A stretch of DNA of 64,000 bases from Patescibacteria group bacterium (GTDB lineage Bacteria; Patescibacteriota; JACPGU01): the NCBI GenBank assembly GCA_041675145.1, contig JBAYUK010000002.1, forward strand, positions 280,530 through 344,529, read 5' to 3'. The translations under genes and the position numbers were made by a program. A model generated the notes under the pieces. It did no database searches. It was given only the letters and a program-made list of their open reading frames with translations, and had not been told where the DNA came from. Positions within the stretch are counted from its first letter, which is position 1; the number at the start of each line of letters is the position of its first letter. Of this stretch, positions 11,500 through 58,413 are shown one piece after another.

Positions 11500-12618
11500 A
11501 TGAAGAGATTTTCTTTCAAGAAACCAAAATCCGATCTTATACTGTCATTTACAGTATTTTTCCTCCTGTTGTTTGGGCTTATTATGATGTCGTCTGCATC
11601 TGCAGTTGTAAGTTATGAGACCTTTGGGTATAACAACTACTTTTTGTATCGTCAGATAGTATACGTGATCGTTGGATTAGTTGGACTAGTGATTGCTCAG
11701 AAACTACCATATAGTTTTTGGAAAAGCATAGCACTTCCTTTTTTGGGTGTATCGTTTGCTTTGAATGTCTTGGTTATGATACCAGGAATCGGAGTTAATC
11801 ATGGTGGAGCCCAGTCTTGGATAAATCTTGGATTCTTTCAATTTCAGCCTTCTGAAATCTTAAAGCTAGCACTTATAGTGTATTTAGCTAGTTGGCTTGA
11901 TGCTAAAAGAAAAGATATTCATTCATTTAAAAATGTCTTTATACCGTTTTGTATCTTGCTCGGCGTGGTAGCAGGAATTTTGATGAAACAACCCGATCTC
12001 GGATCTCTTTTGGTTATCGCTTTTTCAATGATTAGTATTTACTTTGTAGCTGGCGTTCCACTTATTTACTTAGGACTCATTTCTGGAGGGGGAGTGATGG
12101 CTACCTTCTTGCTGATTAAAGCTGCTCCATATCGTCTTGCTCGTCTTATGACTTTTTTACACCCAGAGCAGGATCCGCTTGGAGTAGGCTTCCATATTAA
12201 CCAAGCGTTGATTGCAGTTGGTTCAGGAGGGTTATGGGGAAGAGGTTTTGGTAAGTCGGGTCAGAAGTATACCGGATATATTCCAGAGACTCCTAACGAC
12301 TCAATTTTTGCAATCATTGCTGAGGAGCTTGGTTTTATAAAGCTACTGATAGCACCGATACTGCTCTTTATTATCTTCGCATGGCGAGGACTCGTTATTG
12401 CAAGCCACGCCTCAGACTTCTTTGGTAAGTTATTGGCCTTCGGCATTACAAGCTGGATTACTATGCAGGCGCTACTGAATATGGCTACCATGTTATCTCT
12501 CGTACCGCTTACGGGCCTCACATTACCGTTTATTAGTTACGGTGGTACATCAATTATTGTATCTCTCGTAGCTGTTGGAATATTGCTCAACATTTCTAAA
12601 TATCAGGCGGCATCATAA
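11500..12618 (+). CDS. ftsW: SEDS-family peptidoglycan glycosyltransferase FtsW.
   Basis: Start moved to the internal ATG at 11500, just after the mraY stop. SEDS motifs SEILKLALIVYLA and PDLGS are present. Confidence 0.8.
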   Translation: MKRFSFKKPKSDLILSFTVFFLLLFGLIMMSSASAVVSYETFGYNNYFLYRQIVYVIVGLVGLVIAQKLPYSFWKSIALPFLGVSFALNVLVMIPGIGVNHGGAQSWINLGFFQFQPSEILKLALIVYLASWLDAKRKDIHSFKNVFIPFCILLGVVAGILMKQPDLGSLLVIAFSMISIYFVAGVPLIYLGLISGGGVMATFLLIKAAPYRLARLMTFLHPEQDPLGVGFHINQALIAVGSGGLWGRGFGKSGQKYTGYIPETPNDSIFAIIAEELGFIKLLIAPILLFIIFAWRGLVIASHASDFFGKLLAFGITSWITMQALLNMATMLSLVPLTGLTLPFISYGGTSIIVSLVAVGILLNISKYQAAS

Positions 12619-13803: not shown

Positions 13804-15279
13804 ATGAATACATTACCCGCAACAATTTATGGAGGACTGAAGAAGAGACTGAGACTCTTCTTGCACCCCTATGACCAGCTTTTTATCAATCCCAATACCC
13901 ATTTCCACTTTATCGGAATAGGTGGTATTGGTATGTCTGCCATCGCGTTTCTTCTGAAAGATAGGGGATATGTCGTGACTGGTTCAGACATGAAAGAATC
14001 AGACCTAACACATAAGCTTCAGGAAGCCGGAATTGAAGTAGTGGTTGGTCATGCAGAGGGTAACATCACTCAAGCAATTGATGTTGTAGTGGTCTCTTCT
14101 GCAATACCTAAAGCAAATCCCGAGATTGTTGCTGCGATAAAATCAGGAATCCCGATAGTAAAGAGATCCTTCGTACTTGGAAAGCTCATGCAGTCTAAGA
14201 AGGGTATAGCCGTTTCAGGTACTCATGGAAAGACTACTACGACTACTATGATCACGCTCATTCTTCAAGGAGGAGGGTTAGACCCATCAGCACTCATTGG
14301 TGGTGAAGTCAAAAACATTGGCGGAAACTTCCTGAGTGGAAAAGGGGATACGGTAGTAGTTGAAGCGTGTGAGTATGACCGCTCCTTCTTAGACCTCTAT
14401 CCATATATTGCAGTTATTACCAATATTGAAGCTGATCACCTCGATTATTACAGAGATATCCATGAGATAAAAAAGGCTTTTGAGAAGTTTGTTAAAAAAA
14501 TTCCAAAAGACGGCTTACTTATTATTCCATCTGATGACATGAACGCGGTAGAAGTAGCAAAGGTAGCTACCTGTAAGGTAGTAGCGTTTGGCTTTGGCGG
14601 TCGTAGTCAAATGGCAAAGGAGCTGTTTGCTCTCTACTGGGAAGTAGAAGAAGTTTCACAACGAAAAGGGGTAACTACATTTAGTTTAAGTAACGGATCG
14701 AAAACGCACGAGTTTAGTTTGAAAATTCCAGGTAAACATAATGTTTCTGATGCATGTGCTGCAATTATTGCATCTGATTTTCTAGGAGTGTCCATGGACG
14801 TTGCAGGAGAAGTGCTAAAAGGATTTGAAGGAACAAATAGAAGGTTTCAAATTAAGGGAGAGAAGAAGGATATAGTGGTGGTAGACGACTACGCTCATCA
14901 CCCAACTGAGATTCGAGCAACCCTTGAAGGTGCAAAGAAGTTCTATAAAGGCAAGAAAATAATTGCTATCTTTGAGCCCCATCAATACAGCAGAACGCAT
15001 ATGTTGTTATCTGAGTTTAGTCACTCATTTAGTAATGCGGATCTCATAATTATCCCAGACATATATCCAGTCAGAGACACGAAGGAGGATATGAAAAAGG
15101 TAAGTGCTCAGGATCTTGTTACTGCAATTAACAAGAACGGAGTAGATGCACTGTATATAAAAGACTACGATGAGATAGTTGCGTATTTACAAAAAAATAT
15201 AAAGGAAGACTCGCTAATTATGACAATAGGCGCGGGTAATGTGTATAAAATAGGCGAGATGTTTTTACAATCAAAATAG
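13804..15279 (+). CDS. murC: UDP-N-acetylmuramate--L-alanine ligase MurC.
   Basis: HFIGIGGIGMSAIA N-terminal motif and Mur ligase central/C-terminal domains. Confidence 0.85.
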   Translation: MNTLPATIYGGLKKRLRLFLHPYDQLFINPNTHFHFIGIGGIGMSAIAFLLKDRGYVVTGSDMKESDLTHKLQEAGIEVVVGHAEGNITQAIDVVVVSSAIPKANPEIVAAIKSGIPIVKRSFVLGKLMQSKKGIAVSGTHGKTTTTTMITLILQGGGLDPSALIGGEVKNIGGNFLSGKGDTVVVEACEYDRSFLDLYPYIAVITNIEADHLDYYRDIHEIKKAFEKFVKKIPKDGLLIIPSDDMNAVEVAKVATCKVVAFGFGGRSQMAKELFALYWEVEEVSQRKGVTTFSLSNGSKTHEFSLKIPGKHNVSDACAAIIASDFLGVSMDVAGEVLKGFEGTNRRFQIKGEKKDIVVVDDYAHHPTEIRATLEGAKKFYKGKKIIAIFEPHQYSRTHMLLSEFSHSFSNADLIIIPDIYPVRDTKEDMKKVSAQDLVTAINKNGVDALYIKDYDEIVAYLQKNIKEDSLIMTIGAGNVYKIGEMFLQSK

Positions 15280-22440: not shown

Positions 22441-22454
22441 TTGTTTTACAACCT

Positions 22455-22537
22455 GGCCGGGTGGCGGAATTGGTAGACGCGCACGACTCAAAATCGTGTG
22501 GGGCAACTCATGCGGGTTCGATTCCCGCCCCGGCCAT
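22455..22537 (+). tRNA. tRNA-Leu (anticodon CAA), class II with long variable arm. CCA is not encoded.
   Basis: 7-bp acceptor stem GGCCGGG/CCCGGCC, D-arm GGCGGAATTGGTAGACGC, anticodon loop CTCAAAA, long variable arm, and T-arm GCGGGTTCGATTCCCGC. Confidence 0.85.
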
Positions 22538-28876: not shown

Positions 28877-29839
28877 CTATTTCGTAAGTGCGCTTTCACT
28901 ATATATTACGTTGTCGAAGATGCTGATAATGTTTCCAGATGTGCGATCAAGTGTGGCTGTTATTTTCCTCGCAACACCACCGTAGTATCCAACAGACTCA
29001 ATGTTGGTAACAGGGGAGCCGAGAAGATTTGAAGTCGAGCTACTGCTGATATTTAGGTTTATAGACGGTACTGGTAATCCTGGGGTAACGTTCGGTGCTC
29101 CTTGATCTTCGTTTGTGCTTTTTACTACGTTCCAGGGCTTGATGCGAAATATCTTCTTACCCGATCCAACTTGGTTTTGTAGTAGTATTTTTTTTGAGTC
29201 TACCGTTCTAGTAAAGAATCTGCCGAGTGGAGGAGGAATAATACTGCCGTCACTGTTATATCCAATTATCTCAACCCTCATCCCTGTATTTGCAGGAGTA
29301 TTTAGTGAACTCCAATCAAGAGTTACGTCACTAGTCATATTCGGAACCTCAAGTTCATATACCTCATCTTTTTTTACAACTTGATTCGCAATTACTGGTT
29401 GTTTGTACCACATACGTACGCCGTAGTAGCGCGTATTGCTGTTACGGTTATTTGAGCAGGTTGTAGCTGGTATACGCTGACTGTTATCTAGGTTTACGCA
29501 TCGAGGTGTATTGTTTCTGTTTCCAGTGAATTGAGCTGCGGGTACTTCCGGTCCGATAACATTAGTACTATCTGCACTAGTATCTTTGTCGTTCTCATCA
29601 GATATCTCAGTAGGGGAGTTGCTACTAACTGCATCCCGCCATTCTAGTAGTGCATCTTCTAACCCTGCTTCAGCTGCATAGTAGGCTATCATACTGTTAT
29701 CTATACGAGTAGCGTTACGGATTTCATCTACCATCTCACGAGAAAAAGCCGTGACAGACACGAGCATGATAGCTGAGATGATGAGGGTGATAAGGAGTGC
29801 AACACCTCGTTCAGATTGTCTTGATGTTTGTTTTAACAT
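28877..29839 (-). CDS. PilX-like minor pilin/pseudopilin (type IV pilus-associated).
   Basis: The start is chosen at ATG 29839. The N-terminus MLKQTSRQSERGVALLITLIISAIMLVSVTAF...YYAAEAGLE matches the PilX N-terminal domain pattern (RG, a hydrophobic helix, then yyaAEAG). Confidence 0.5.
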   Translation of the reverse strand: MLKQTSRQSERGVALLITLIISAIMLVSVTAFSREMVDEIRNATRIDNSMIAYYAAEAGLEDALLEWRDAVSSNSPTEISDENDKDTSADSTNVIGPEVPAAQFTGNRNNTPRCVNLDNSQRIPATTCSNNRNSNTRYYGVRMWYKQPVIANQVVKKDEVYELEVPNMTSDVTLDWSSLNTPANTGMRVEIIGYNSDGSIIPPPLGRFFTRTVDSKKILLQNQVGSGKKIFRIKPWNVVKSTNEDQGAPNVTPGLPVPSINLNISSSSTSNLLGSPVTNIESVGYYGGVARKITATLDRTSGNIISIFDNVIYSESALTK

Positions 29840-29945
29840 ATTAAGATCATTGTAGCGGTTTGCACACAGAGAGGCAAGCACGCAAAAGAAACAAAAAAAC
29901 AACCCCATGACGATGGAGTTGTTTGAAGAGATTTTTCGTTTGAAA

Positions 29946-30611
29946 TCAGTTGAGAGGTTTGGTGTCGTGGCAGTTGCCACAATACGGCTTGCCCTCTGAA
30001 CTGTGATGGCGAATCTTGAGTTTAGTTTTGCAACCAGTGCATGGTGCGCGTTTTGCTTCATTTCCGTCGTAGCAAGGGCGGCATAGGTCTGCTTTTGTTC
30101 CTGGTCCTTTTTGTGATCTATACATTAGAAACGCAGACTCCTTACAGGAGACACATATGCCGTTGAAAAACTCCTTTTTGTTGACGAGGCATTTTGTGCA
30201 TACCTTCTTCTTCCCTGAATTCGTTTCAACTGTTCTTACCTGTGATATCGTGGAAAAATTTTTACACGAGATACACTGTACCAGGTTGGCTTTAGCGTAG
30301 CAGGTGAAGCAGGTCTTAAGCCTCCGCCCTTCTTTACTGATGCTGTAGCTGCCGACTGGGTTGTTGTTGCAAGCCTGGCAGAGTTGAGAGTAAGAGTGTG
30401 GTTCAGAAGGGAAGTGTTCCAGGCAGTAGAATCGCTTGTTTTTTGCCGAGTAAGAGATTGTTTCGCCGGTAGCAAAGCATCGGGAGCATCGCTTCTCCAC
30501 TTGAAGTAGCGCCATAGGTGGGAACACCTTGCGGCGAGGGTGGACTGGTTCCAAGATGACCACAGTTGGGTCGGTTGGTGGTGGTTCTGATATCCCTGTT
30601 AAAGTGCTCAC
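29946..30611 (-). CDS. Cysteine-rich protein with about ten CxxC pairs (multiple zinc-ribbon repeats), hypothetical.
   Basis: GTG start preceded by AAGGAG with 8-nt spacing. CxxC motifs recur regularly through the protein. Confidence 0.5.
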   Translation of the reverse strand: MSTLTGISEPPPTDPTVVILEPVHPRRKVFPPMALLQVEKRCSRCFATGETISYSAKNKRFYCLEHFPSEPHSYSQLCQACNNNPVGSYSISKEGRRLKTCFTCYAKANLVQCISCKNFSTISQVRTVETNSGKKKVCTKCLVNKKEFFNGICVSCKESAFLMYRSQKGPGTKADLCRPCYDGNEAKRAPCTGCKTKLKIRHHSSEGKPYCGNCHDTKPLN

Positions 30612-30787
30612 TGTTCACGCTCCTTGTGTATTTTTTGGAAAGTTTATTGTAAACCAAAATAATACTTTATTCAATAGTAAATAACTTCTATATAAGCATA
30701 AGTGAGCTGTTTGCTGATATAGGATGTTTGAATAGATGTAAAGTAATTACCTACTTACTAATAACATTTCCACTGGGTAGTTTATTT

Positions 30788-30796
30788 GGTATAATA
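30788..30796 (+). promoter_or_regulatory. Extended -10 promoter (TGGTATAAT) of the Type I R-M operon.
   Basis: It lies in an AT-rich 210-nt intergenic region, 28 nt upstream of the hsdM ATG. Confidence 0.5.
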
Positions 30797-30823
30797 AGCG
30801 TTATAACATCTCATGGATAGTAA

Positions 30824-32374
30824 ATGTTAAAGGTAAAAAAAGAGCAAAAATCTGAACCACTTGAGAAACAGCTTTTTAAAGCGGCGGATAAGCTTCGTAA
30901 GAATATTGATGCAGCAGAGTACAAGAATATTGTGCTTGGTTTGATTTTTTTGAAATATATCTCTGATTCGTTTGAAGAGAAATACAGACAGCTGACACTA
31001 GAAAAAGAACAGGGAACTGGAGCCGATCCAGAAAGTATCGACGAATATCGAGCTGAGAATGTGTTCTTTGTACCAACCGAGGCACGTTGGCAGTATCTCC
31101 ATGGTCGCTCAAAGCTCCCATCTATTGGTGAAGATCTTGATAAGGCCATGGAATCAATCGAGAAAATCAACCCAACGCTCAAAGGTATCTTGCCAAAGGT
31201 ATTTGCTCGCCCAAATCTGGACAAAGCAGCGCTTGGCGGACTGATTGACCTCGTGAGCGATATCGCGCTCGGTGACGAGGAAGCCAAATCAAAAGATATT
31301 CTTGGTCGAGTCTATGAATATTTTCTTGGTGAGTTTGCCAATGCCGAAGGAAAAAAGGGAGGGCAGTTTTATACCCCAAAATCGATCGTGAAGCTGATGG
31401 TTGAAATGATTGAACCATACAAGGGCCGCATCTATGACCCGTGTTGTGGTAGTGGCGGCATGTTTATTATGTCGGAAAAATTTGTGCAGTCTCATGCAGG
31501 CCGTATTGATGACCTTGCTATCTATGGGCAGGAGAGTAATCAAACGACCTATCGTCTCGCTCGAATGAACCTAGCGATTCGCGGCATTGATGGATCGGGT
31601 GTGAAATGGAACACCGAAGGATCGTTTCTCAAGGACGAGCACAAAGATCTCAAAGCAGATTTTATTCTCGCCAACCCACCGTTTAACGTTTCCGATTGGA
31701 GCGGGGAGTTGCTACAAACTGATCCACGTTGGCAATATGGCAAACCACCAGCAGGCAATGCGAACTTTGCTTGGTTACAACATATGGTCTATCATCTCTC
31801 GCCAAATGGTATTATGGCCTGCGTGTTGGCCAATGGTTCTCTTTCATCACAATCGAGCGGGGAAGGAGAAATCAGAAAGGCACTTGTCGACGCTGATCTA
31901 GTAGATTGTATCGTCGTGCTGCCAAAGCAACTTTTTTATAACACAGGTATCCCGGCGTGTATCTGGTTTCTGTCTCGCAAACGAATTGGTAACGGTGACC
32001 GTAAGCGTACAGGTGAGATACTATTTATCGACGCGTCCGACACTGGCTATATGGCAGACCGCACTCATCGTGAGTTCACCGACGAAGATGTCACCATGAT
32101 TGCCGACACCTATCATGAATGGCGCAAAGTTGGCGGTAAATACGAAGACCAAAAGGGTTTCTCAAAATCCGCAACACTCGCTGATATCAAAAAACACAAC
32201 TATGTCCTCATCCCTGGTAGCTATGTCGGCATCAAAGCCGCCGAGGACGACGGAATATCGTTTGAAGAAAAGATGAAAAAGTTGACAGGAGAGCTGAAGG
32301 AACAGATAAAAGAGGAAGAGAGGTTAAATGAGGAGATTAAGAAGCAGCTGAATAAAATTGGAATTAAATTATAG
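30824..32374 (+). CDS. hsdM: Type I restriction-modification system methyltransferase subunit HsdM (N6-adenine).
   Basis: HsdM N-terminal domain, SAM motif ([10 protein letters not shown]), catalytic NPPF (ANPPFN), and a C-terminal coiled coil. Confidence 0.9.
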
Positions 32375-32376
32375 AT

Positions 32377-33009
32377 ATGGGTTTAATCTTTACACCTCCT
32401 AAGTACCAAGCTAGTTCGTTTAATTGTCCTCACTGTAGGGCGTTTTCTCAGATGATTTGGAGTAACACCCATTATAATAGTGGAAGGTATACGGTTGATA
32501 ACCTTGAAATCTCTCACTGCTTTCACTGTAAAGACTTTTCTTTATGGCTAAATGCGAAAATGATTTACCCAGCAAAAATACTTGTAGATTCCCCAAACTC
32601 TGATTTGCCAGAAGATATAAAGAAAGACTACCTAGAAGCAGCTAGTATTTTAAGTGAGTCATCGCGTGGTTCATCTGCGTTGCTCCGTATTGCTATTGAG
32701 AAGCTGGTAAATTATCTTGGGGCATTAGGAAGTAATCTTAATGCTAAGATTGGGTTCTTGGTTTCTGATAGAAATCTTAATCCAAAGATTCAAAAATCTT
32801 TAGATGTAGTGCGGGTGATTGGAAATAATGCGGTTCATCCCGGATTGATTGATTTAACTGACGATCGCTCTACGGCAGAATTGCTTTTTAAGTTAGTAAA
32901 TATTATAGCAAAAGAAATGATAACTGAACCAAATGAAGTTGACTCAATATATAGTGAACTAGTACCAGAAAAAAATAAAATTGCGATCAAGAAGCGAGAC
33001 ACAAAATAA
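32377..33009 (+). CDS. DUF4145-like protein with an N-terminal CxxC...CxxC zinc ribbon, embedded in the R-M operon.
   Basis: Conserved block KIQKSLDVVRVIGNNAVHPG, an R..GN..H signature as in DUF4145. It starts 3 nt after the hsdM stop. Confidence 0.5.
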   Translation: MGLIFTPPKYQASSFNCPHCRAFSQMIWSNTHYNSGRYTVDNLEISHCFHCKDFSLWLNAKMIYPAKILVDSPNSDLPEDIKKDYLEAASILSESSRGSSALLRIAIEKLVNYLGALGSNLNAKIGFLVSDRNLNPKIQKSLDVVRVIGNNAVHPGLIDLTDDRSTAELLFKLVNIIAKEMITEPNEVDSIYSELVPEKNKIAIKKRDTK

Positions 33010-33013
33010 CTAT

Positions 33014-33586
33014 ATGAATAGAAAAGAAGTTATAAATAAGATTGAAGAATTCCGTCAAACTTGTAAAGAATACAGCAAGCTTCTTTTGGATTCTCGCGAT
33101 AGTGTTGTGCCTGAGATCGTTCGTAATCATGATTCAATTGATGAGGCAAAGGCAGATTTGAGCAGATCCTTTGCTTTTTTGGAAGAATATATTATTAAGT
33201 TTGGTAATAACCCTAGAATGAGTGACGGTGTTTGGAATGTCACATACTCTCCTTATAGTAACGCATTTAGCACTGATACACTTGTTCGTGTTGCCCCATC
33301 ATTAGACAGAGTTGTTGACGATCTTAATATTGTCTTGGGTAGAATCGAAGCTACTACTGACAGTGAATTCGCAGAGAAGATGAACCCTTTACCACAAAAT
33401 AGCAGTGGAGAGAGCGACAGTAAGGAAGTAACAATCAATGATATAGAAAAACCTCATAAAGAGTACTGGAATATGGTCTTCGCATCACTTATGGGCTGGG
33501 CGAGGTCACATGTTTCTACGGTGATCGCAGGTGTTATAATTACACTAATTGCTGGCTTCTTACTTTTTAAACTTGGCTGGAACTAA
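33014..33586 (+). CDS. Hypothetical protein with a C-terminal transmembrane anchor, embedded in the R-M operon.
   Basis: The start is chosen at ATG 33014, 5 nt after the upstream stop. The body is acidic and helical, and the C-terminus has a TM helix (VSTVIAGVIITLIAGFLLF). Confidence 0.45.
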   Translation: MNRKEVINKIEEFRQTCKEYSKLLLDSRDSVVPEIVRNHDSIDEAKADLSRSFAFLEEYIIKFGNNPRMSDGVWNVTYSPYSNAFSTDTLVRVAPSLDRVVDDLNIVLGRIEATTDSEFAEKMNPLPQNSSGESDSKEVTINDIEKPHKEYWNMVFASLMGWARSHVSTVIAGVIITLIAGFLLFKLGWN

Positions 33587-33587
33587 A

Positions 33588-34733
33588 ATGACGTTCACAT
33601 CTTCGAAAAATTGGAAGACAGTAGACTTGTCAGAATTGGCAGCTTTTTCGAATGGGAAAAGTTCCCCAGATAGGCTTGAGAGCGGACAGTATCCAGTTTA
33701 CGGAGCTAATGGAATTATTGGTTTTACTGATATAAAGAATTCTGATAAAGAATCAATTATTATCGGTAGAGTCGGATCGTATTGTGGAAGTCTATATTTC
33801 TCAGAAAATGAGTCATGGGTTACTGATAATGCTATTATCTGTAAAGCAAAAGATAATTCTGATCCAAAATTTATTTTTTATTTACTAAATACATTAGGCT
33901 TAAACTCTCGTGCAGCAGGATCTGGTCAACCACTAATAAACCAGTCAATTTTAGGGTCTATAGAAGTCATTATCCCACAAAAGAAGGAGGAGCAAAAAGA
34001 AGTTGCGGCGGTGTTAGGGTGTTTGGATGACAAGATTGAGCTGTTGCGGCGAGAGAATAAAACGCTCGCAAGCATCGCGCAAGCGATATTTAAAGAATGG
34101 TTTGTAGATTTCCGATTTCCTGGGCACGAAAAGGTAAAGATGATTGATGGACTGCCTGAGGAGTGGAAGGTTGGTAAGTTAGGGGAGTTTTGCAATATCT
34201 CAATTGGACGAACTCCACCACGAAAAGAAGAAGAATGGTTTTCGAAATATCCAAGTGATGTAAAATGGATTTCTATTAAAGACATGGGAACAAGCGGGGC
34301 TTATATTTTTAATACTTCAGAATATTTAACCCAAGAAGCAGTGGATAATTTTAATATTCCTGTGATTCCAGAAAATACTGTGATTATTAGTTTCAAGATG
34401 ACGCTTGGACGTGTTGCAATTACAACCGAAGAAATGCTTTCAAATGAAGCGATTGCACACCTAAAACCAAAAGATAATCTTTCGCCAGAATTTCTGTATC
34501 TAACCATGAAGAATTTTGATTTTAATTCTATGGGTAGTACTTCATCTATTGCAAGTGCTGTAAATTCACAATCGATCAAGGATATGGAAATTGTAGCTGG
34601 AGGTGATCATATAATGAAATTATTTAGCCAAATTACTAGCCCTATTTTTGAGAGATTAAAAAACGGAGCAAAAGAAATCCAAACCCTGTCCAGGTTGAGG
34701 GATGATTTGTTGAATAAGATTTTTAATGTATGA
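33588..34733 (+). CDS. hsdS: Type I R-M specificity subunit HsdS (two target-recognition domains).
   Basis: Start is at ATG 33588, 1 nt after the upstream stop. A central conserved coiled-coil region (EVAAVLGCLDDKIELLRRENKTLASIAQAIFKEWF) and a matching C-terminal repeat are present. Confidence 0.85.
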   Translation: MTFTSSKNWKTVDLSELAAFSNGKSSPDRLESGQYPVYGANGIIGFTDIKNSDKESIIIGRVGSYCGSLYFSENESWVTDNAIICKAKDNSDPKFIFYLLNTLGLNSRAAGSGQPLINQSILGSIEVIIPQKKEEQKEVAAVLGCLDDKIELLRRENKTLASIAQAIFKEWFVDFRFPGHEKVKMIDGLPEEWKVGKLGEFCNISIGRTPPRKEEEWFSKYPSDVKWISIKDMGTSGAYIFNTSEYLTQEAVDNFNIPVIPENTVIISFKMTLGRVAITTEEMLSNEAIAHLKPKDNLSPEFLYLTMKNFDFNSMGSTSSIASAVNSQSIKDMEIVAGGDHIMKLFSQITSPIFERLKNGAKEIQTLSRLRDDLLNKIFNV

Positions 34734-36232
34734 GAAATATTCTGGACTTTACGAATGTGGAGGCAAGAAGCTTTCTTCTCAAGGGAGATAGTTATGTTAA
34801 CTTTGATCTCCCAAAGTATTTTACATTCGATGATTTAATCAAAAAAATATCAAATAAGATTGATAATAAAGAGTTATCAGATTTTTATGCAACTACTAAG
34901 CCTAATCATCCAAAGACTTTTGATGAAGTTAATTATGTTTTGCTAAATAATAAAGATGGTAGGTATGCATGGAGGCCATTTGAAATAATCCATCCGACAA
35001 TATATGTCTACTTAGTTCATCGGATTACAGAGATAAATAATTGGCAAACTATATTGAATAGATTTAGATGCTTCAAAGAACATACGGTAATATCTTGCAT
35101 GAGTCTACCTATTGAATCAGAAAATAGCGACAGTGATAAGGCTAGCCAAGTTATTAATTGGTGGAATGAAGTCGAACAGCGGTCTCTTGAATGTGCCCTG
35201 GAATATGAGTATGTATATCATACTGATATTAGCGACTGCTATCCTTCGATATATACTCATTCGGTTGTCTGGGCTTTACATACAAAAGAAGTAGCTAAAA
35301 GAGAAATAAGAAACAATAGTTTATTAGGGAATATTATTGATGGATGTCTTCAATCAATGTCTTACGGTCAAACAAATGGGATACCTCAGGGTAGCGTTCT
35401 GATGGATCTTTTGGCGGAACTTGTACTTGGGTATGTAGATGAACTAGTAACAGAAAGAATGAGTCAGATTGATGTTTGTGAATATAAGATAATTAGGTAT
35501 AGAGATGATTATCGTGTCTTTGTGAATAGTCCAGAAATAGCGGAAAGAATATTAAAAATACTTACAGAGGTTCTTATTGGCCTGGGTCTAAAGTTAAATA
35601 GTAGTAAAACGGTATTATCGGTAAATGCCATAGAGTCATCCATCAAACCAGATAAGTCACATTGGATTCAGTATGGTAGTGAATTAGGGTCATTATTGGT
35701 TTTTGTCAAGCGATTACATAGCTTTTCAGGTCAATTTCCTAATTCTGGCACATTAGTTAAAATGCTCCAAAGGTTTTATAAAAAGATCGAGAACTTAGAT
35801 TCTTTAGATGACTATATTAATCCTGTAGTTATGATTAGCTATTTAGCCGATATTGCCTATAGGAATCCCAGAACTTATCCAATAGCAATAGCAGTTATTA
35901 GTAAGTTGATTCTATTTATTAAGCAAGAAGATCGCCAGGCTCTTATTGATAAAATAAGGAAGAAATTTTCTAGAATTCCCAATACAGGCCACTTAGACTT
36001 ATGGCTTCAAAGAATGACTATTAAGATTTATCCAGGTATACTATATCCAGAAAAGTTATGTAGAAGAGTCTTTGATTCAAATATTAAGATTTGGAATAGT
36101 GATTGGCTTTGTAAAGATATGCAAGATTTAATACAATCTACACCTTTAGTTGATTTCGGAGTAATCAACTCTTTTGGAGACTTTATTTCTTCACAAGAGG
36201 TAGCATTATTTAGGCAGCTACAGGACTCGTAA
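34730..36232 (+). CDS. Stand-alone reverse transcriptase (Abi/UG-like defence RT candidate), translationally coupled to hsdS.
   Basis: ATGA start/stop overlap with hsdS. RT motif 1 is RPFEIIHPTIYVY. Motif A is YHTDISDCYPSI. Motif B' is NGIPQGSVLMDLLAELVL. Motif C is IRYRDDYRVF, with YRDD at nt 35498-35509. Motif D/E is GLGLKLNSSKTVL. A ~200-aa alpha-helical C-terminal region follows. No endonuclease or maturase domain is present. Confidence 0.8.
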   Translation: MRNILDFTNVEARSFLLKGDSYVNFDLPKYFTFDDLIKKISNKIDNKELSDFYATTKPNHPKTFDEVNYVLLNNKDGRYAWRPFEIIHPTIYVYLVHRITEINNWQTILNRFRCFKEHTVISCMSLPIESENSDSDKASQVINWWNEVEQRSLECALEYEYVYHTDISDCYPSIYTHSVVWALHTKEVAKREIRNNSLLGNIIDGCLQSMSYGQTNGIPQGSVLMDLLAELVLGYVDELVTERMSQIDVCEYKIIRYRDDYRVFVNSPEIAERILKILTEVLIGLGLKLNSSKTVLSVNAIESSIKPDKSHWIQYGSELGSLLVFVKRLHSFSGQFPNSGTLVKMLQRFYKKIENLDSLDDYINPVVMISYLADIAYRNPRTYPIAIAVISKLILFIKQEDRQALIDKIRKKFSRIPNTGHLDLWLQRMTIKIYPGILYPEKLCRRVFDSNIKIWNSDWLCKDMQDLIQSTPLVDFGVINSFGDFISSQEVALFRQLQDS

Positions 36233-36235
36233 TTT

Positions 36236-39200
36236 ATGAAAATTATAAATGAATCCACAATTGAACAACTTACAATCGATCTTCTTCGCGAAGCGGGGTT
36301 TTTGTATAAAAGCTCTGAGGAATTAGAACTTCAGAGACCAGATTTATCGCAGGTTGTTTTGCGAGTATGGCTTATTGCGGCTATTAAGAGGCTCAATTCT
36401 GGTTTGCCAGTTGAGGCACATAATTTTGTAATAAATCAGATCACTAATACAGTGAGTCTAACTGACAAAGTAGTCGAGAATAATAGAGCAGTACATCGAC
36501 TGCTTGTCGAAGGTGTGCCAGTAGAGATATCGGAAGACGGGCATATGCGCGGATATAACGTGCGAGTCATCGATTGGGATGACATGTCTAAAAATGAGTT
36601 TGTAGTAACGAATCAATTTTATATAAAGGGTCTGGAGCGAGATAAGATCCCCGATATTGTATTGTTTGTAAACGGATTGCCTTTGGTGGTGATAGAGCTC
36701 AAGGATGCGAAGAACGAAGACGCGACGGTACATAAGGCGTTTACTCAACTGACGAACTATCAGAAAGCTATTCCTGATTTGTTTGCCTATAATGGTATAC
36801 TCGTTGTCTCTGATGGTCTCGATGCTCGAGCGGGTACGATCACGAGCGGTTTTGATCGTTTCCTGGCATGGAAATCAGTAGATGGAACGAAGGATGCGCA
36901 GCGGACAACACCAGAGATTGAGACTTTGGTGCTTGGCATGTTGCGACCCGAAGTATTGCTGGATCTGATCCGAAACTTTACTGTGTATGAAGAGGAAAAA
37001 AAGACGTTGGATGACGGATCTTTGGAAATTCGCACGATTAAGAAAACGGCGGCGTATCATCAATATTTTGCAGTACAAAAGGCGATTGATTCAACCATTC
37101 ACGCGACTGAGTCTGATCACAGAGCTGGTGTGGTGTGGCACACGCAGGGATCAGGGAAATCGCTTTCGATGGTCTTTTACGCTGGGAAGATTATCCAGAG
37201 ATTGGGAAATCCGACTATTGTGGTGCTGACTGATCGCAATGACCTGGATCAGCAGTTATTTGATACTTTTGCGGGAGCCAAGGATTTGTTGCGCCAAGAC
37301 CCGGTGCAGGCAGAAGACCGCGCTCATTTGAAAAAGTTACTCGCAACCAGTGGTGGCGGGGTGATATTTACTACGATTCAAAAATTCTCACTCGAAGAAG
37401 GTGAGAAGGAATACCCGATGTTGTCTGACAGATCAAATATTATCGTCATGGCCGATGAGGCGCACCGATCGCAGTATGGATTTGATGCAAAGGTGCGGGA
37501 GGTGCGTGGTGTGGATGGGATTACGAATGGGGCGATCGTTTCGTATGGATTTGCCAAATATGTCCGGGACGCATTGCCAAATGCTTCTTTCCTTGGATTT
37601 ACCGGGACGCCGATCGAAAAGGGTGATGCGAATACTAGGGCGGTCTTTGGTGACTATGTTGACGTGTATGATATTCAAGCGGCGGTAGAAGACGGTGCGA
37701 CTGTGCCGATTAGCTACGAGTCGCGACTGGTAAAGCTCGAATTTAACGATACCGAAAAAGCTGAACTCGACCGAGCAGTAGATGAAGTGCTGGAAAGTGA
37801 AGAAACAAGTGTAACGGAAAAAGCAAAGGCTAAGTGGGCGCAGCTCGAGGCCGTGGTTGGGCATAGGGCGAGACTACGCGACATTGCAAAGGACCTGGTA
37901 ACGCACTTTGAAGTCCGCCAAGAAGCATTTGATGGAAAGGCGATGATTGTCGTGATGAGCCGTCGTATCGCTGTTGAGCTCTATGATGAGATTATTAAAC
38001 TACGACCACAGTGGCATGATGATAGTAAGAAAGGTGGTGTGATTAAGGTTGTGATGACAGCTGCCTCATCTGACCCGGTGGGCTTTCAGCCTCATCATAC
38101 AACTAAGGATGATCGCAAAGAGTTGGCGCTACGATTTAAAGATACGAAAGACTCCTTGAAGCTGGTGATTGTGCGGGATATGTGGCTGACAGGTTTTGAT
38201 GTGCCGTGTTTGCATACAATGTACATTGATAAGCCGATGCGGGGTGCAAATCTGATGCAGGCGATTGCCCGCGTCAATCGGGTCTATAAAGATAAGCCAG
38301 GCGGATTGATCGTTGATTATATTAGTATTGCTTCGGACCTTAAAGAAGCATTGGCTGTCTATACGGAGAGTGGCGGAAAGGGAGGTGTGATTGCCGATCA
38401 AGCAGTAGATACACTGCCACATATGTTGGCAAAATTTGAAATAGTACAAGGGATTTTGGATGGAGTGAACTATGATAAATACTTTAAAGATGATGCAAGA
38501 GGAAAACTAGAAGCGATCTTAGAAGTAGAAGATTTCTTACTTGGAAACGAAGAACGCAAAGAACGGTTTTTGAAAGAAGTAGTGGCGCTGTCAAAGCTCT
38601 TTGCCCTGGCAATGCCAAACTTGCGAGCTATTGAGATCCGTGATGAGGTGGCATTTTTCCAAGCAGTAAAGGCGCGGATTATGAAGCTCGCGAGCGACGG
38701 CGGCGGTCGCGATATAGATATTGAGACGACTATTCGACAGTTAGTTGATAAGGCGGTCGTCTCACAAGGCATTATCGATATCTTTGATGCAGCTGGGATT
38801 AAGAAGCCAGATATTTCAATTTTGTCTGACGAGTTCCTGGAAGAAATTCGAACCATGGAGCGACAGAATATTGCACTCGAATTGCTGAAAAAAATCCTCA
38901 ACGATGAATTGCGTTCACGAGGCAAGAAAAATGCAGCGCAAATGAAGAAGTTTTCAGAGATGTTGCACAATGCGATCAAGAAATATCAGAATAATCTACT
39001 GACTGCTGCGCAGGTGATTGATGAATTGATCAAGCTGGCGAAAGACGTGAAGGAGGCCGACAAGCGGGGTGAGACACTAGGGCTGACTGAAGACGAAATT
39101 GCATTTTATGATGCTCTATCGCAAAACGAAAGTGCGGAAAAAGTGCTAGGTGACGACAAGCTCAAGGAGTTGGCACGAATTCTGGTAGGAAGGGTGCGTG

Positions 39201-39367
39201 AAAACGCCACGATCGACTGGAGTTTGCGAGAGACTTCACGAGCACGCATGCGAGTGATGGTGAGACGATTACTGAATCAATATGGCTACCCGCCAGATTT
39301 TCAAGAGATCGCCACCGAAACGGTGTTGGAGCAAGCGGAGTTGTTTGCGAAGGAAGAGATAAGATAG
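36236..39367 (+). CDS. hsdR: Type I restriction enzyme endonuclease/translocase subunit HsdR.
   Basis: PD-(D/E)xK nuclease motif ([18 protein letters not shown]), SF2 helicase motifs ([15 protein letters not shown]), and a C-terminal helical domain. It starts 3 nt after the RT stop. Confidence 0.9.
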
Positions 39368-39415
39368 CTACTTTTAAATAGAGCCGTATGGCTATATTTT
39401 TGTTATAATACACTT

Positions 39416-39688
39416 ATGCTAGAGCAAAAAGAAATGTATGTCGATCAGTACCTAAGGGAGAACGGCAGGCTGCTTGAGGAGCGGCCCGCCACTGGTCAGG
39501 CGTTTGAGCTTAATGGAGCTTATTATTGGACCTGCTATTTGCTGACGGTAAAGATACCGCAAGGTGAGCATAAGAAGAGAATATTTCTTCATATTGGTGC
39601 ATTCTTGCCATTTGATTGGCGCCCAGTTGATGAGTACGATGTTCCTGGCTTGATAGATTTCTTAAACATGTATTACCGTAAGAGCTAG
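39416..39688 (+). CDS. Hypothetical 90-aa protein (possible antitoxin partner of the downstream zeta-like kinase).
   Basis: Its own TTGTTATAAT promoter is at 39398-39407. No recognisable motifs. Confidence 0.35.
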   Translation: MLEQKEMYVDQYLRENGRLLEERPATGQAFELNGAYYWTCYLLTVKIPQGEHKKRIFLHIGAFLPFDWRPVDEYDVPGLIDFLNMYYRKS

Positions 39689-39690
39689 CT

Positions 39691-39750
39691 ATGCCAAAAT
39701 ACTACAACTCACAACGGAAAAAAAAGAGCTGTATCAGCCTGCAGAGATAA
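39691..39750 (+). pseudogene. Degenerate duplicate of the 5' end of the Cas4-like nuclease gene (19-codon remnant MPKYYNSQRKKKSCISLQR*).
   Basis: 39691-39745 aligns with 40709-40762: ATG(C/T)CAAAATACTACA...CACAACG...CTGTAT. The reading frame is disrupted at an A8 run. Confidence 0.5.
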
Positions 39751-39768
39751 CTTCTCGACAGGCTCGAA

Positions 39769-40485
39769 GTGACCCATAACTCAACCATGACAGACGAACA
39801 AATACAAAAAAATGCGGACCAATATTTAAAAGATCACAAGGCAGATATCCTAGAGATGTTTGCGAGTCCAGAACACTATTTTCCGACTGAAACACCGGTT
39901 ACTATCTTTATGGCTGGTTCTCCTGGAGCAGGTAAGACTGAAGTCGCTAGCGCTTTGTTTGATGAGTTGAGGAGCATGAAGAGTCCTCCTGTTAGAATAG
40001 ATGCAGATATGATTAGGTCTATGCTGCCCGGGTATGTAGGCGGGAACGCTCATGTATTCCAAAAAACAGCTAGTACGGGAGTGCATATATTGTTTGACTA
40101 TGCGTTAAAGCATAACCTGAACGTTATCCTCGATGGTACTTTTTCACATAGTAGTGCATCGCAAAACATCGAAAGGTCTTTGAAGCGAGGTAGGACGGTT
40201 ATTATTTATTTTGTATACCAGGATCCTCTTATTGCCTGGCGTTTTACACAGGCGCGCGAAGCTATCGAAGGGAGACGGGTAACAAAGGAGACGTTTATCA
40301 ATGCATTTTTAAAGTCGCGGGATAATGTTCGACTAGTTAAGGAACAATTTGGCTCAGAGATTAGGCTCGACGTTATACTAAAAGACTTCACGCACGACAT
40401 CGGACAGGTATTTACTGATGTAGCTGAAATTGACCAGTTCCTCCCAAAGGCATATACTAAAGAAGAACTAGAGACTCTTATATGA
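39769..40485 (+). CDS. Zeta-toxin-like P-loop kinase (AAA/zeta_toxin family).
   Basis: Walker A MAGSPGAGKT, then RIDADMIRS, which corresponds to the zeta IDGD catalytic Asp region, then NVILDGTF. Confidence 0.55.
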   Translation: MTHNSTMTDEQIQKNADQYLKDHKADILEMFASPEHYFPTETPVTIFMAGSPGAGKTEVASALFDELRSMKSPPVRIDADMIRSMLPGYVGGNAHVFQKTASTGVHILFDYALKHNLNVILDGTFSHSSASQNIERSLKRGRTVIIYFVYQDPLIAWRFTQAREAIEGRRVTKETFINAFLKSRDNVRLVKEQFGSEIRLDVILKDFTHDIGQVFTDVAEIDQFLPKAYTKEELETLI

Positions 40486-40682
40486 TGAAAATACAAGCAA
40501 TAAAACATATAGTACAAAAGGCTAAGAAAGATACAAAGCAGGAGTTCTCTGACTTCTTTCGTAATGCACCAAAAGAAGAGCAAATAGCGCTCCTTAAACG
40601 AGTAGCTCAGAAAGCAAATAAAGAACAAAAAGCAGTAGTAGATAAATATAAAAAAACATTAGCTAGAAAAATCGCTCGTTAA
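40482..40682 (+). CDS. Small Lys-rich basic protein (66 aa), hypothetical, overlapping the zeta-like gene by ATGA.
   Basis: 4-nt overlap with the upstream gene. A terminator hairpin overlaps its stop codon. Confidence 0.4.
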   Translation: MMKIQAIKHIVQKAKKDTKQEFSDFFRNAPKEEQIALLKRVAQKANKEQKAVVDKYKKTLARKIAR

Positions 40683-40696
40683 GAGCGGTTTTTTGG
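40669..40696 (+). terminator. Small intrinsic terminator (CGCTC-GTTAA-GAGCG followed by TTTTTT) after the zeta-like cassette.
   Basis: A 5-bp GC-rich stem plus T6. It overlaps the next gene's TGGTATAAT promoter (40694-40702). Confidence 0.4.
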
Positions 40697-40708
40697 TATA
40701 ATACATTC

Positions 40709-41509
40709 ATGTCAAAATACTACACAGCACAACGAGATAAAGGACTGTATGAACCAGGGGGTACCAAGCCCTTTAAGTTGTCGCGCTCAAAGATTGACCT
40801 TTTTATTTCATGTCCTCGGTGCTTCTATTTAGATCGCAGGCTCGGAGTTGGGCGCCCTCCAGGGTTTCCGTTTGCCTTGAACTCCGCTGTGGATACTCTT
40901 TTAAAACAGGAGTTTGATACCCACCGCGTGGCAGGTACTCGCCACCCTCTCATAGAACAGTACGGCGTTAATGCTCGGCCTGTTGCTCATGAGAACCTCG
41001 AACAATGGAGACATAACTTCACGGGAGTGCAGTACTTGCACGAGAAAACAAACTTCCAAGTATTTGGAGCAATCGACGACCTTTGGATAAATGAGGCAGG
41101 GGAATATATTGTGGTGGACTACAAGGCTACCGCGAAAGAAGAGGCCATCACTACTCTCGACAAAGACTGGCATGATGGATACAAGCGTCAGATGGAGATA
41201 TACCAGTGGTTATTGCGCCACAACGGGCATAAGGTATCAGATACGGGGTATTTCGTATACTGTAATGGTCGAGCAGATCGTGCTGCCTTTGATAAAAAGC
41301 TCGAATTTGATGTCACCCTTATCCCGTACAAGGGATCAGATGAGTGGGTAGAGGGTAAAATCAATGAGGCGTATGGGTGTCTCAACTCAGATGAGGTGCC
41401 AGTTTCATACCCTGAGTGTGACTACTGCTCATATATTAAGGCTGTGGAGTCTCACGAAGGTGCAAAAGGAGCTTCAGCTAGTAAGAAAGCACAGGGGAAG
41501 CTCTTCTAG
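40709..41509 (+). CDS. PD-(D/E)xK nuclease, Cas4/RecB-like family, with four Cys (possible Fe-S cluster). Stand-alone, with no CRISPR nearby.
   Basis: Motifs IDDLWINEAGEYIVVDYKAT (D...E.K with the DYK signature), N-terminal CPRC and C-terminal CDYC. Confidence 0.5.
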   Translation: MSKYYTAQRDKGLYEPGGTKPFKLSRSKIDLFISCPRCFYLDRRLGVGRPPGFPFALNSAVDTLLKQEFDTHRVAGTRHPLIEQYGVNARPVAHENLEQWRHNFTGVQYLHEKTNFQVFGAIDDLWINEAGEYIVVDYKATAKEEAITTLDKDWHDGYKRQMEIYQWLLRHNGHKVSDTGYFVYCNGRADRAAFDKKLEFDVTLIPYKGSDEWVEGKINEAYGCLNSDEVPVSYPECDYCSYIKAVESHEGAKGASASKKAQGKLF

Positions 41510-58340: not shown

Positions 58341-58413
58341 GCCGATGTAGCTCAGATGGTAGAGCGCAACCATGGTAAGGTTGAGGTAACGGGTTCGATT
58401 CCCGTCATCGGCT
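58341..58413 (+). tRNA. tRNA-Thr (anticodon GGU).
   Basis: Acceptor GCCGATG/CATCGGC, D-arm GCTCAGATGGTAGAGC, anticodon stem CAACC/GGTTG with loop ATGGTAA, and T-arm ACGGGTTCGATTCCCGT. Confidence 0.85.

Follow-up and report, generated by a model that had tools for sequence, protein, structure and literature searches.

Abi-P2, a family of reverse transcriptase (RT)-like proteins known since 2006 (Odegrip et al. 2006) and represented by the structure PDB 7R08 (Figiel et al. 2022), excludes bacteriophage T5 as a single gene in the P2 prophage, and its defence is lost upon deletion of the YRDD region (review PMC8632793). The protein is a trimer that performs protein-primed, template-independent synthesis, priming at Tyr61; the Y61F substitution abolishes DNA synthesis (PMC9508834). 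An RT of the Abi-P2 type has been termed a 'multi-domain stand-alone protein' (PMC9226505). DRT4 (UG15) and DRT6, which are likewise class 1 UG/Abi single-gene RTs and make protein-primed random ssDNA, provide the sole tested activation model for this class, in which the trigger is a phage DNA-binding protein rather than an anti-restriction protein (PMC12783706). AbiA and AbiK of Lactococcus plasmids are also template-independent, protein-priming Abi polymerases, and both have been noted in the literature to adjoin restriction-modification (R-M) genes.

The term 'guilt by embedding' has been used for defence genes that lie inside type I R-M, BREX, DISARM and Hma operons (Payne et al. 2024), with TgvAB in V. 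cholerae VPI-2 and RloF as further examples. PrrC is almost exclusively found embedded (Payne et al. 2024). Here we compare these systems with an RT gene located in a type I R-M operon of a Patescibacteria (CPR) genome. We analysed a stretch of 64,000 nucleotides (the window); all coordinates given are positions within it, and all features lie on its + strand.

Identity of the RT gene

The RT-like ORF (34730..36232; ATG start, TAA stop) encodes 500 amino acids. Its translation contains all five RT motifs that a first-pass annotation of the same DNA had quoted: motif 1 (RPFEIIHPTIYVY, residues 82-94), motif A (YHTDISDCYPSI, residues 163-174), motif B' (GIPQGSVLMDLLAELVL, residues 217-233), motif C (RYRDDYRVF, residues 256-264) and motif D (GLKLNSSKT, residues 286-294). 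That annotation could not assign a UG/DRT class by eye; profile, PDB match and fold all lead to Abi-P2. The PADLOC AbiP2 profile matched the protein over residues 1-497 (profile positions 4-486 of 489) with E=2.9e-191 and 634.6 bits, ahead of all other models by over 130 orders of magnitude, the second-best being RT_UG14 at 4e-54. The sequence of Abi-P2 in PDB 7R08 was matched over residues 1-494 with E=6.8e-95. The AF2 model (pLDDT 87, pTM 0.88) predicts a bilobal fold without a thumb, with fingers/palm at residues ~1-300 and a helical domain at ~300-500, of which residues 300-491 are helical; the helical C-terminal region pointed out earlier is thus predicted to be an Abi-type helical domain. 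In Foldseek the model matched 7R08 with a TM of 0.85/0.87 over 513 columns, and DRT4/UG15, DRT6, AbiK and AbiA with a TM of at most 0.64. Judged from its sequence and modelled fold, the ORF is a full-length Abi-P2 homologue of class 1 UG/Abi.

The window RT shares with E. coli Abi-P2 the HMM family, full-length sequence similarity, predicted fold, YRDD motif, priming tyrosine, lack of a thumb and C-terminal helices. Both are single ORFs without an ncRNA, and, as has been reported for the original Abi-P2, the gene has a higher AT content than its host. The two proteins are, however, only ~34-36% identical, and the window RT comes from a CPR host. The settings also differ, being the P2 portal/gpA hotspot for E. 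coli Abi-P2 and the interior of a type I R-M operon here. DRT4 and DRT6 are among the next-best HMM and fold matches but belong to distinct groups (TM 0.57-0.64; PADLOC 1e-47 to 1e-51 versus 1e-191 for AbiP2). AbiA and AbiK are distant in sequence (AbiK E=2e-8 in PDB), have a TM of ~0.5 and differ in oligomeric state; AbiA, in addition, carries a HEPN domain.

The genuine RVT_1 palm, together with weak matches below threshold to models of group II, retron and Drt2/3/5 proteins, could be taken to mean that the protein is a templated reverse transcriptase working on an operon-encoded RNA (retron, DRT2/DRT9-like or DGR-like) or a group II intron remnant. We regard this as extremely improbable, as these models all stayed far under their cutoffs, the TM to retron, DGR and group II RTs was at most 0.37, and the fold is that of thumb-less Abi-P2. 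The individual candidates fared no better. For a retron, the NCBIfam model scored 27 bits, with its cutoff at 235, Rfam gave no match, and the operon offers no intergenic space. For a group II intron, TIGR04416 reached 62 bits where the cutoff is 300, RVT_1 was the only Pfam domain matched in the protein, and no intron RNA was found in Rfam. For a DGR, the direct repeats between 30500 and 39600 were at most 35 nt long and 71-81% identical, which is chance level, and the TM to a DGR RT was 0.33. Rfam at E<=1 found no RNA between 29500 and 41000. Profiles, Rfam and repeats agree with the first-pass annotation, which had seen neither an ncRNA nor any feature of a maturase/endonuclease, retron or DGR; the profile search that it proposed bears out its suggestion of an Abi/UG defence RT.

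We then located the putative catalytic and priming residues. The predicted priming tyrosine, Tyr30 (codon 34817..34819), is the equivalent of Abi-P2 Tyr61, because the HMMER alignment is gapless here and query residue 1 corresponds to chain residue 32 of 7R08. The motif A catalytic aspartate, Asp166 (codon 35225..35227), lies within the RVT_1 match, and the YRDD catalytic site of motif C, Y257-R258-D259-D260, is encoded at 35498..35509. In an alignment of 30 RT homologues at ~50% identity, Tyr30 and Asp166 are invariant, as are R256, R258, D259, D260 and Y261, while Y257 is conserved in at least 90%. Such invariance at this level of identity points to selection on enzyme activity. The closest homologue returned with the RT as query was 54% identical; the matches of this search did not include the query protein itself, despite the presence of its exact sequence in the contig index, which we attribute to an artefact of the search.

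From the residues present, we propose that the RT would act as an oligomer that primes on its own Tyr30 and extends untemplated ssDNA through the Asp166/YRDD site. By analogy with its relatives, and given the homologues that stand alone in their genomes, it is probably a self-sufficient single-gene anti-phage module of the abortive-infection type, with no need for an ncRNA. The later steps are modelled on DRT4 and DRT6, the closest mechanistically studied relatives: the ssDNA would probably be kept harmless by a host exonuclease until stabilised by a phage DNA-binding protein, whereupon it may accumulate and lead to abortion of the infection. The trigger of DRT4/DRT6 is T5 ORF55, which would apply to Abi-P2 by analogy.

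Operon layout and passenger genes

The operon has the order hsdM / PD-T7-4 / ORF190 / hsdS / Abi-P2 / hsdR, with successive intergenic gaps of 2, 4, 1, -4 and 3 nt, none of them exceeding 4 nt. The methyltransferase gene hsdM (30824..32374, 516 aa) matched Pfam N6_Mtase (2.3e-110) and HsdM_N (7.4e-27) and PADLOC MTase_I (1.1e-206). The specificity gene hsdS (33588..34733, 381 aa) matched Pfam Methylase_S in two stretches (2.4e-35) and PADLOC Specificity_I (1.1e-92); ATG 33588, also supported by an independent gene call, is more likely to be its start than the upstream TTG 33549 of the ORF list. The restriction/translocase gene hsdR (36236..39367, 1043 aa) is full length, with Pfam matches to HSDR_N, SWI2_SNF2, T1R_D3-like and T1RH-like_C and a match to PADLOC REase_I of E=0 and 1183 bits (residues 4-1041 against 5-1025 of 1029). 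Two independent assemblies, whose genes had been called independently, show identical gene order.

Both junctions of the RT gene described in the first-pass annotation can be read in the sequence. At the upstream one, the RT ATG (34730-34732) and the hsdS stop TGA (34731-34733) share a 4-nt ATGA overlap; at the downstream one, the RT stop TAA (36230-36232) is followed by TTT and then by the hsdR ATG at 36236, a gap of 3 nt. The best sigma-70-like promoter match (30767..30795; TTTCCA-17-TATAAT with a TG-extended -10, 10/12) lies ~30 nt upstream of hsdM and is likely, from its sequence, to be the operon promoter. In the promoter/terminator scan the total number of sites was no higher than in shuffles, and the only noteworthy site was the one upstream of hsdM. 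Given six genes, one promoter-like site and gaps of no more than 4 nt, the RT and the R-M genes are probably expressed and inherited together; the abutting genes support the co-transcription and tight coupling to hsdS and hsdR claimed earlier.

Two further passengers, absent from the first-pass annotation, are found between hsdM and hsdS. One is a homologue of PD-T7-4 (DUF4145; 32377..33009, 210 aa), which begins 2 nt past the hsdM stop and matched the PADLOC PD-T7-4 model over its full length (7.5e-76) and Pfam DUF4145 (8.6e-13). The other, ORF190 (33014..33586), lies directly upstream of hsdS and gave no match in Pfam, PADLOC, NCBIfam or PHROGs. It belongs to a very small family: we found eight homologues, and all four contexts examined had the arrangement hsdM..ORF190-hsdS..hsdR of a type I R-M operon. 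We suggest that such an operon would provide layered defence, in which restriction acts first and Abi-type back-ups deal with phages that get past it.

All four genes of the interior are AT-rich, with a GC3 of 27-33% (RT 27%, PD-T7-4 and hsdS 30% each) versus 45-46% in hsdM (45%, host-like), hsdR (46%) and host genes. By this measure the low-GC passenger cassette looks horizontally acquired, an appearance that would also fit passengers that serve the R-M operon itself, as an addiction/stabilisation module or as a spacer that fixes the ratio of HsdS to HsdR through translational coupling, or an RT that is an inactive relic. The position of the RT gene, which puts translation of hsdR after that of the RT, is in line with such a service. 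However, the catalytic and priming residues are intact, the same residues being invariant in the 30 homologues, the Abi-P2 family has demonstrated anti-phage activity, and many type I operons related to that of the window have no RT at all. We therefore consider a service role or a relic very unlikely.

Association with type I R-M and exchange of cassettes

We examined the genomic contexts of RT homologues in a sample of 80 in which relatives of the query are over-represented and whose comparison loci are mostly MAG contigs. The RT was located between hsdM/S and hsdR at 14 of the 36 evaluable genome loci, across at least ten phyla, and in the window's part of the RT tree the embedded share rose to 14 of 20 evaluable loci (~70%). 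As other flanks yielded one weak Hsd-like match in 640 kb, the association of the RT with type I R-M is real and far stronger than chance. With the window counted, 18 of the 24 cases have an RT start no more than 101 nt away from the hsdS stop, and the exact hsdS-RT-hsdR order occurred at six loci (L037, L051, L052, L057, L059 and L060). The first-pass annotation had suggested surveying homologues for this synteny and had counted an RT never co-occurring with R-M genes as an argument against its own reading; since the synteny is recurrent, the argument does not apply. The homologues also occur on their own. No R-M was present within 5-10 kb at 21 of the 36 evaluable genome loci, all 14 viral contigs with RT homologues lacked R-M genes, and stand-alone copies were found at the P2 prophage hotspot, beside IS elements and in three plasmid contexts without a type I R-M operon.

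The hsdS-to-hsdR interval accommodates other genes as well. In operons with the ORF190-hsdS frame, a 438-aa protein, a 260-aa protein or an AAA ATPase takes the place of the window's RT. Operons that embed an RT carry further cargo (RhuM, SIR2+HerA, GmrSD, Shedu, Schlafen, Fic and PDC-S05), and extra cargo often keeps the RT apart from hsdR or hsdS. RTs have moved between different R-M families: in L064 and L068 the RT DNA is 95% identical and hsdR 69%, and RTs that are 68% identical occur in operons whose HsdR proteins are only 23% identical. In a Mantel test the distances between RTs and between HsdR proteins were correlated overall with r=0.51, a mixed result as regards coupling, consistent with short-term co-inheritance and long-term reshuffling. 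Six loci (L036, L040, L044, L064, L068 and L070) contain duplicated remnants of the hsdS tail and hsdR head around the RT cassette, which suggests a route of passenger exchange; we looked for such remnants in the window and found none there. The low GC3 of the window's interior genes also fits exchange. The interval is probably a cargo slot, whose cassettes would be exchanged by recombination via the conserved 3' end of hsdS and 5' end of hsdR.

The position of the RT raises the question of a PrrC-like guard. At the prr locus, prrC sits between hsdS and hsdR. The window RT, too, has hsdS on one side and hsdR on the other, in a type I operon with which it appears to be co-transcribed, and would, like PrrC and RloC, form an abortive-infection-type second line behind restriction. 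The RT could then be held latent by contact with HsdMS/HsdR and released when a phage anti-restriction protein disables R-M, the whole being one composite system. The 4-nt overlap and 3-nt gap, as well as the broad and strong enrichment in type I R-M operons, would fit such coupling. Yet PrrC, which the R-M complex regulates, and RloC are ACNases unrelated to the polymerase found here, and whereas PrrC is nearly confined to R-M operons, Abi-P2 is often free-standing (14 of 36 genome loci embedded, and none of 14 viral loci) and is not known to be under R-M control. In the P2 prophage a single gene, that of Abi-P2, suffices for protection, and R-M is absent from the many genomic, viral and plasmid contexts listed above. 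Closely related RTs reside in unrelated R-M families, cassettes have been swapped between diverged frames, unrelated cargo fills the same slot in sister operons, and other cargo frequently separates the RT from hsdR or hsdS. At L032 an intact RT stands beside a fragmented hsdR. We also searched the homologues for RT-Hsd fusions and saw none; the over-long homologue P0001 (617 aa) owes its length to an internal duplication of the helical domain, not to an Hsd fusion. Finally, the related DRT4 and DRT6 respond to phage DNA-binding proteins. On this evidence we consider it unlikely that the RT is held and released by the R-M complex.

We instead favour, as the probable interpretation, an autonomous Abi-P2 defence cargo in an R-M cargo slot, without a dedicated RT/R-M machine. 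Because the association is far above chance, we keep a functional link as a possibility: there is a slim chance that type I R-M and the Abi-P2 subfamily found directly after hsdS are functionally linked, for example with the RT as a PrrC-like guard and untemplated DNA synthesis as its effector. If the R-M complex did regulate the RT, the RT would count as a novel kind of R-M guard, and cultured carriers for tests of it are available in Algoriphagus pacificus, Ferrovum myxofaciens, Thiohalocapsa marina and Tepidimonas aquatica.

The RT is a defence gene embedded in type I R-M in the sense of Payne et al. 2024. As in the systems described there, a same-strand defence passenger is located between R-M core genes, its family also occurs non-embedded, and several unrelated passengers are present in one operon interior. 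The differences are the high embedding frequency of one RT subfamily, far above chance and across phyla, and the hsdS-tail duplication scars at related loci. We found no report of Abi-P2 explicitly embedded in type I R-M in searchable literature text, the accessible supplements of Payne et al. 2024 or the main text of Mestre 2022, an absence that is not proof of novelty. The suggestion that the locus may be an undescribed composite system was overstated, given that embedding in type I R-M has already been described (Payne et al. 2024; TgvAB). The locus is a known family in a known arrangement of defence genes nested in other defence systems, recurrent and essentially ordinary, and a divergent Abi-P2 homologue nested with a PD-T7-4 homologue and ORF190 in a CPR genome is, as such, a matter of routine annotation. 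This small-genome Patescibacteria bacterium nevertheless fits three extra passengers into an operon of 8.5 kb, and at least two of the three belong to known defence families.

The reverse transcriptase and its operon

Six genes on the forward strand make up the operon. It starts with hsdM (30824..32374), which is followed by a homologue of PD-T7-4 with DUF4145 (32377..33009; PADLOC 7.5e-76, full-length; PHROG ‘DNA binding protein', 1e-31), the unclassifiable ORF190 of 190 aa (33014..33586), hsdS for the type I specificity subunit (33588..34733; Pfam Methylase_S in two stretches, 2.4e-35; PADLOC Specificity_I, 1e-92), the 500-codon RT (34730..36232, from the ORF translation) and a complete hsdR (36236..39367; PADLOC REase_I, E=0, 1183 bits; HSDR_N, SWI2_SNF2, T1R_D3-like and T1RH-like_C). 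The Pfam and PADLOC matches thus identify the flanks of the RT as hsdS and hsdR of a type I restriction-modification (R-M) system, and the first-pass annotation of this feature was borne out in every detail. Indeed, all the RT motifs it quoted are present in the ORF translation, the ATG of the RT (34730-34732) overlaps the TGA of hsdS (34731-34733) as ATGA, and the TAA of the RT (36230-36232) is separated by TTT from the hsdR ATG at 36236. The junctions from hsdM to hsdR measure 2, 4, 1, -4 and 3 nt, and gene calls made independently on two metagenome assemblies gave an identical gene order. A promoter and terminator scan detected no convincing internal terminator; its top promoter-like site for this region matches an extended -10 and precedes hsdM by ~30 nt. 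The operon is sharply split in composition: GC3 is 45-46% in hsdM, hsdR and host housekeeping genes, and 30, 33, 30 and 27% in the PD-T7-4 homologue, ORF190, hsdS and the RT, respectively. The TyrRS of this host matches, at 100% identity, an NCBI MAG protein annotated as Patescibacteria, which places the host in the CPR. The operon carries three passengers (the PD-T7-4 homologue, ORF190 and the RT); PD-T7-4, absent from the first-pass annotation, adds a second known defence gene.

The class of the RT had been considered not assignable by eye; profile searches, however, place it unambiguously in Abi-P2. The PADLOC AbiP2 model matched end to end (E=2.9e-191; protein 1-497 on profile 4-486 of 489), with UG14 (4e-54), Drt6 (3e-51), Drt4 (7e-47) and AbiK (3e-31) as runners-up. 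The solved structure closest in sequence was 7R08 (E=6.8e-95, query 1-494), the Abi-P2 crystal structure (PMC9508834). AlphaFold2, given 30 homologues, produced a model (pLDDT 87, pTM 0.88) that superposed on 7R08 with a TM of 0.85/0.87, far better than on UG15/DRT4 (0.57-0.64), DRT6 (0.59), AbiK (~0.5), AbiA (~0.43), or retron, DGR or group II RTs (≤0.37). The modelled fold therefore agrees with the earlier view of the C-terminal half as helical and Abi-like, and identifies it as an Abi-type helical domain in place of the thumb. In a 617-aa homologue (P0001) this helical domain is tandemly duplicated over ~110 residues, and residues 267-398 of the RT in the window align to it twice. Group II and retron RTs were rejected by their own models (62 bits against a cutoff of 300, and 27 against 235, respectively); Rfam gave no RNA match at E≤1 within 29500-41000, and there were no TR/VR-like repeats around the RT. 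The RT is thus a new, divergent member of Abi-P2, ~35% identical to E. coli Abi-P2, and both the family and the arrangement are already known.

The RT-like enzymes Abi-P2 and AbiK form trimers or hexamers and perform untemplated DNA synthesis primed on their own tyrosine; in Abi-P2, Y61F abolishes polymerisation and Tyr46 is dispensable (PMC9508834). In an N-terminal alignment without gaps, Tyr30 of the RT lies opposite Tyr61, and Phe15 occupies the position of Tyr46. Y30, D166, R258, D259 and D260 are invariant in the 30 homologues (~50% identity), and Y257 reaches at least 90% conservation. Abi-P2 of a P2 prophage excludes phage T5, and deletion of the YRDD region abolishes exclusion (PMC8632793). 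DRT4 and DRT6 constitutively make ssDNA that is degraded by host SbcB, until the T5 DNA-binding protein ORF55 shields it and its accumulation kills the cell (PMC12783706). By analogy with these relatives, the RT in the window would most likely be activated by the same route.

Association with type I R-M among relatives

We analysed 80 genomic loci whose RTs are 45-53% identical to that in the window. The word-indexed homology search may miss identical entries, as its best RT match was 54% although the exact protein is present on two indexed contigs. Hsd genes were sought by phmmer with the window subunits as queries, and divergent HsdS were added by PADLOC and Pfam. Among the 36 evaluable loci (5 kb or more to each side of the RT), the RT was flanked by hsdM/hsdS and hsdR in the same orientation in 14 (39%) and lay directly past an hsdR-M-S operon in one; 21 had no R-M genes. 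The full set comprised 22 embedded, 4 adjacent and 54 without. The flanks of the 54 non-embedded RTs served as an internal control: their 640 kb contained one weak HsdM-like match, indicating that the enrichment of the RT in R-M is very large. None of the 80 loci carried a PD-T7-4 homologue.

Embedded RTs occur in Acidobacteriota, Bacteroidota, Thermodesulfobacteriota, Alpha-, Beta- and Gammaproteobacteria, Spirochaetota, Verrucomicrobiota, Zixiibacteriota, Actinomycetota and CPR. Of the 24 RTs preceded by an hsdS (window counted), 18 start within 101 nt of the hsdS stop; L052 and L075 have a 4-nt overlap identical to the window's, and six loci (L037, L051, L052, L057, L059 and L060) have hsdS-RT-hsdR without intervening genes. 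In a neighbour-joining tree, the window RT clusters with embedded loci. One large Bacteroidota/cyanobacterial clade has no embedded RT (0/16 evaluable loci); outside it, 14/20 are embedded. The homologues thus do recur in type I R-M, and the association is real.

Probable cargo status and possible cassette exchange

The first-pass annotation proposed that the RT and the R-M system form a novel composite machine, in which the RT would be wired to R-M like PrrC. Position is the sole evidence in favour of this reading, although strong enrichment in particular clades adds somewhat to its appeal; it is testable, but we consider it improbable. The RT is NEVERTHELESS read here as autonomous cargo in the R-M operon. 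Firstly, the family is autonomous elsewhere. Homologues occur in the portal/gpA hotspot of P2, at a plasmid site flanked by IS elements and on a small Pediococcus plasmid, none of 14 viral contigs carrying them has Hsd genes, and 21/36 genome loci have no R-M; AbiP2, a stand-alone multi-domain class 1 UG/Abi RT, has been located within defence islands, in P2 prophages and on plasmids (Mestre et al., PMC9226505). Secondly, the slot is generic, as unrelated genes occupy the same position: in ORF190-hsdS operons it holds a 438-aa unknown, a 260-aa unknown or an AAA_15/AAA_21 ATPase. Further genes in operons with embedded RTs are RhuM, HEPN/MNT-like, YhcG-PDDEXK, SIR2+HerA, Schlafen/AlbA_2, GmrSD, Shedu SduA, Fic, PDC-S05 and PDC-S23.

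Thirdly, RTs reassort with R-M frames. Identity to the RT in the window is 45-51% both where HsdR is 50-56% identical and where it belongs to a different R-M family (26-31%). L057 and L070 share RTs 68% identical and HsdR 23% identical; in L064 and L068 the values are 96% (95% DNA) and 64% (69% DNA). RT and HsdR distances correlate (Mantel r=0.51), driven by recent pairs sharing everything. Fourthly, no RT-Hsd fusion was seen among homologues, and in a Chloracidobacterium MAG (L032, 5800-17000) an intact 505-aa Abi-P2 homologue lies beside a truncated hsdM, an hsdS in two halves and an hsdR split into many short ORFs. This is weak evidence from a MAG, reflecting either R-M decay around a kept RT or assembly errors. 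Finally, embedding of defence genes is already described: they often lie in type I R-M, BREX, DISARM and Hma, with PrrC near-obligate (Payne et al. 2024), TgvAB lies inside a V. cholerae type I operon, and AbiA and AbiK are reported beside R-M genes. The limited literature searched contained no report of Abi-P2 embedded in type I R-M.

Possible traces of exchange are visible in several loci. In L064 and L068 the near-identical RT block lies between copies of a 70-nt direct repeat, translated as ..RDALLPKLLSGELSV.., which we take to resemble the helix conserved at the C-terminus of HsdS. Another repeat matches the 5′ start of the adjacent hsdR and appears to be its duplicated 5′ end. Repeat copies lie at 9858-9927, 11535-11604, 14425-14494 and 13145-13225/15597-15677 in L064, and at 9858-9928/11535-11605 in L068. 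Scanning each locus with the C-terminal 40 residues of the HsdS it encodes revealed remnants of the hsdS tail (..RDxLLPKLLSGEL.., resembling the hsdS 3′ end) directly past the RT stop in L036, L040, L064, L068 and L070, and another just upstream of the RT in L040; L044 has an hsdR-head remnant after the RT. These sequences suggest cassette exchange by recombination via conserved hsdS and hsdR ends, which would also fit the AT-rich genes that, in the window, separate hsdM from hsdR, both host-like. No such remnants occur in the window itself, where the genes abut cleanly; we found no description of them in the literature searched.

ORF190 and neighbouring genes

ORF190 matched nothing in four profile libraries, and its homologues number only 8 among 5.8 billion clusters; one homologue (P0245) bears PF09509 (Hypoth_Ymh). 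In all four contexts examined (L086, 4296-4919; L087, 3393-4016; L088, 6001-6675; L089, 804-1352), the homologue lies 3-5 nt upstream of hsdS in a type I R-M operon of the T1RH-like_C type. ORF190 may be either an accessory gene of R-M or an obligate embedded passenger.

Immediately upstream of hsdM, two divergent ORFs of 343 and 221 aa (28877-30611, -) had no Pfam (precomputed), PADLOC or PHROGs match. Directly past hsdR (39416-41509, +) lie a 90-aa ORF without matches, a Zeta-toxin/AAA_33 kinase (6e-38), a 66-aa ORF and a PDDEXK_1/Cas4-like nuclease (PADLOC Cas4, 7e-10), which may be a toxin–antitoxin pair and a nuclease extending the defence locus. Elsewhere in the window are tRNAs Leu-CAA (22454-22537) and Thr-GGT (58341-58413), and a full-length LOOT RNA (RF03000; 62943-63061, -) scoring 74 bits in Rfam against a gathering score of 46.4.
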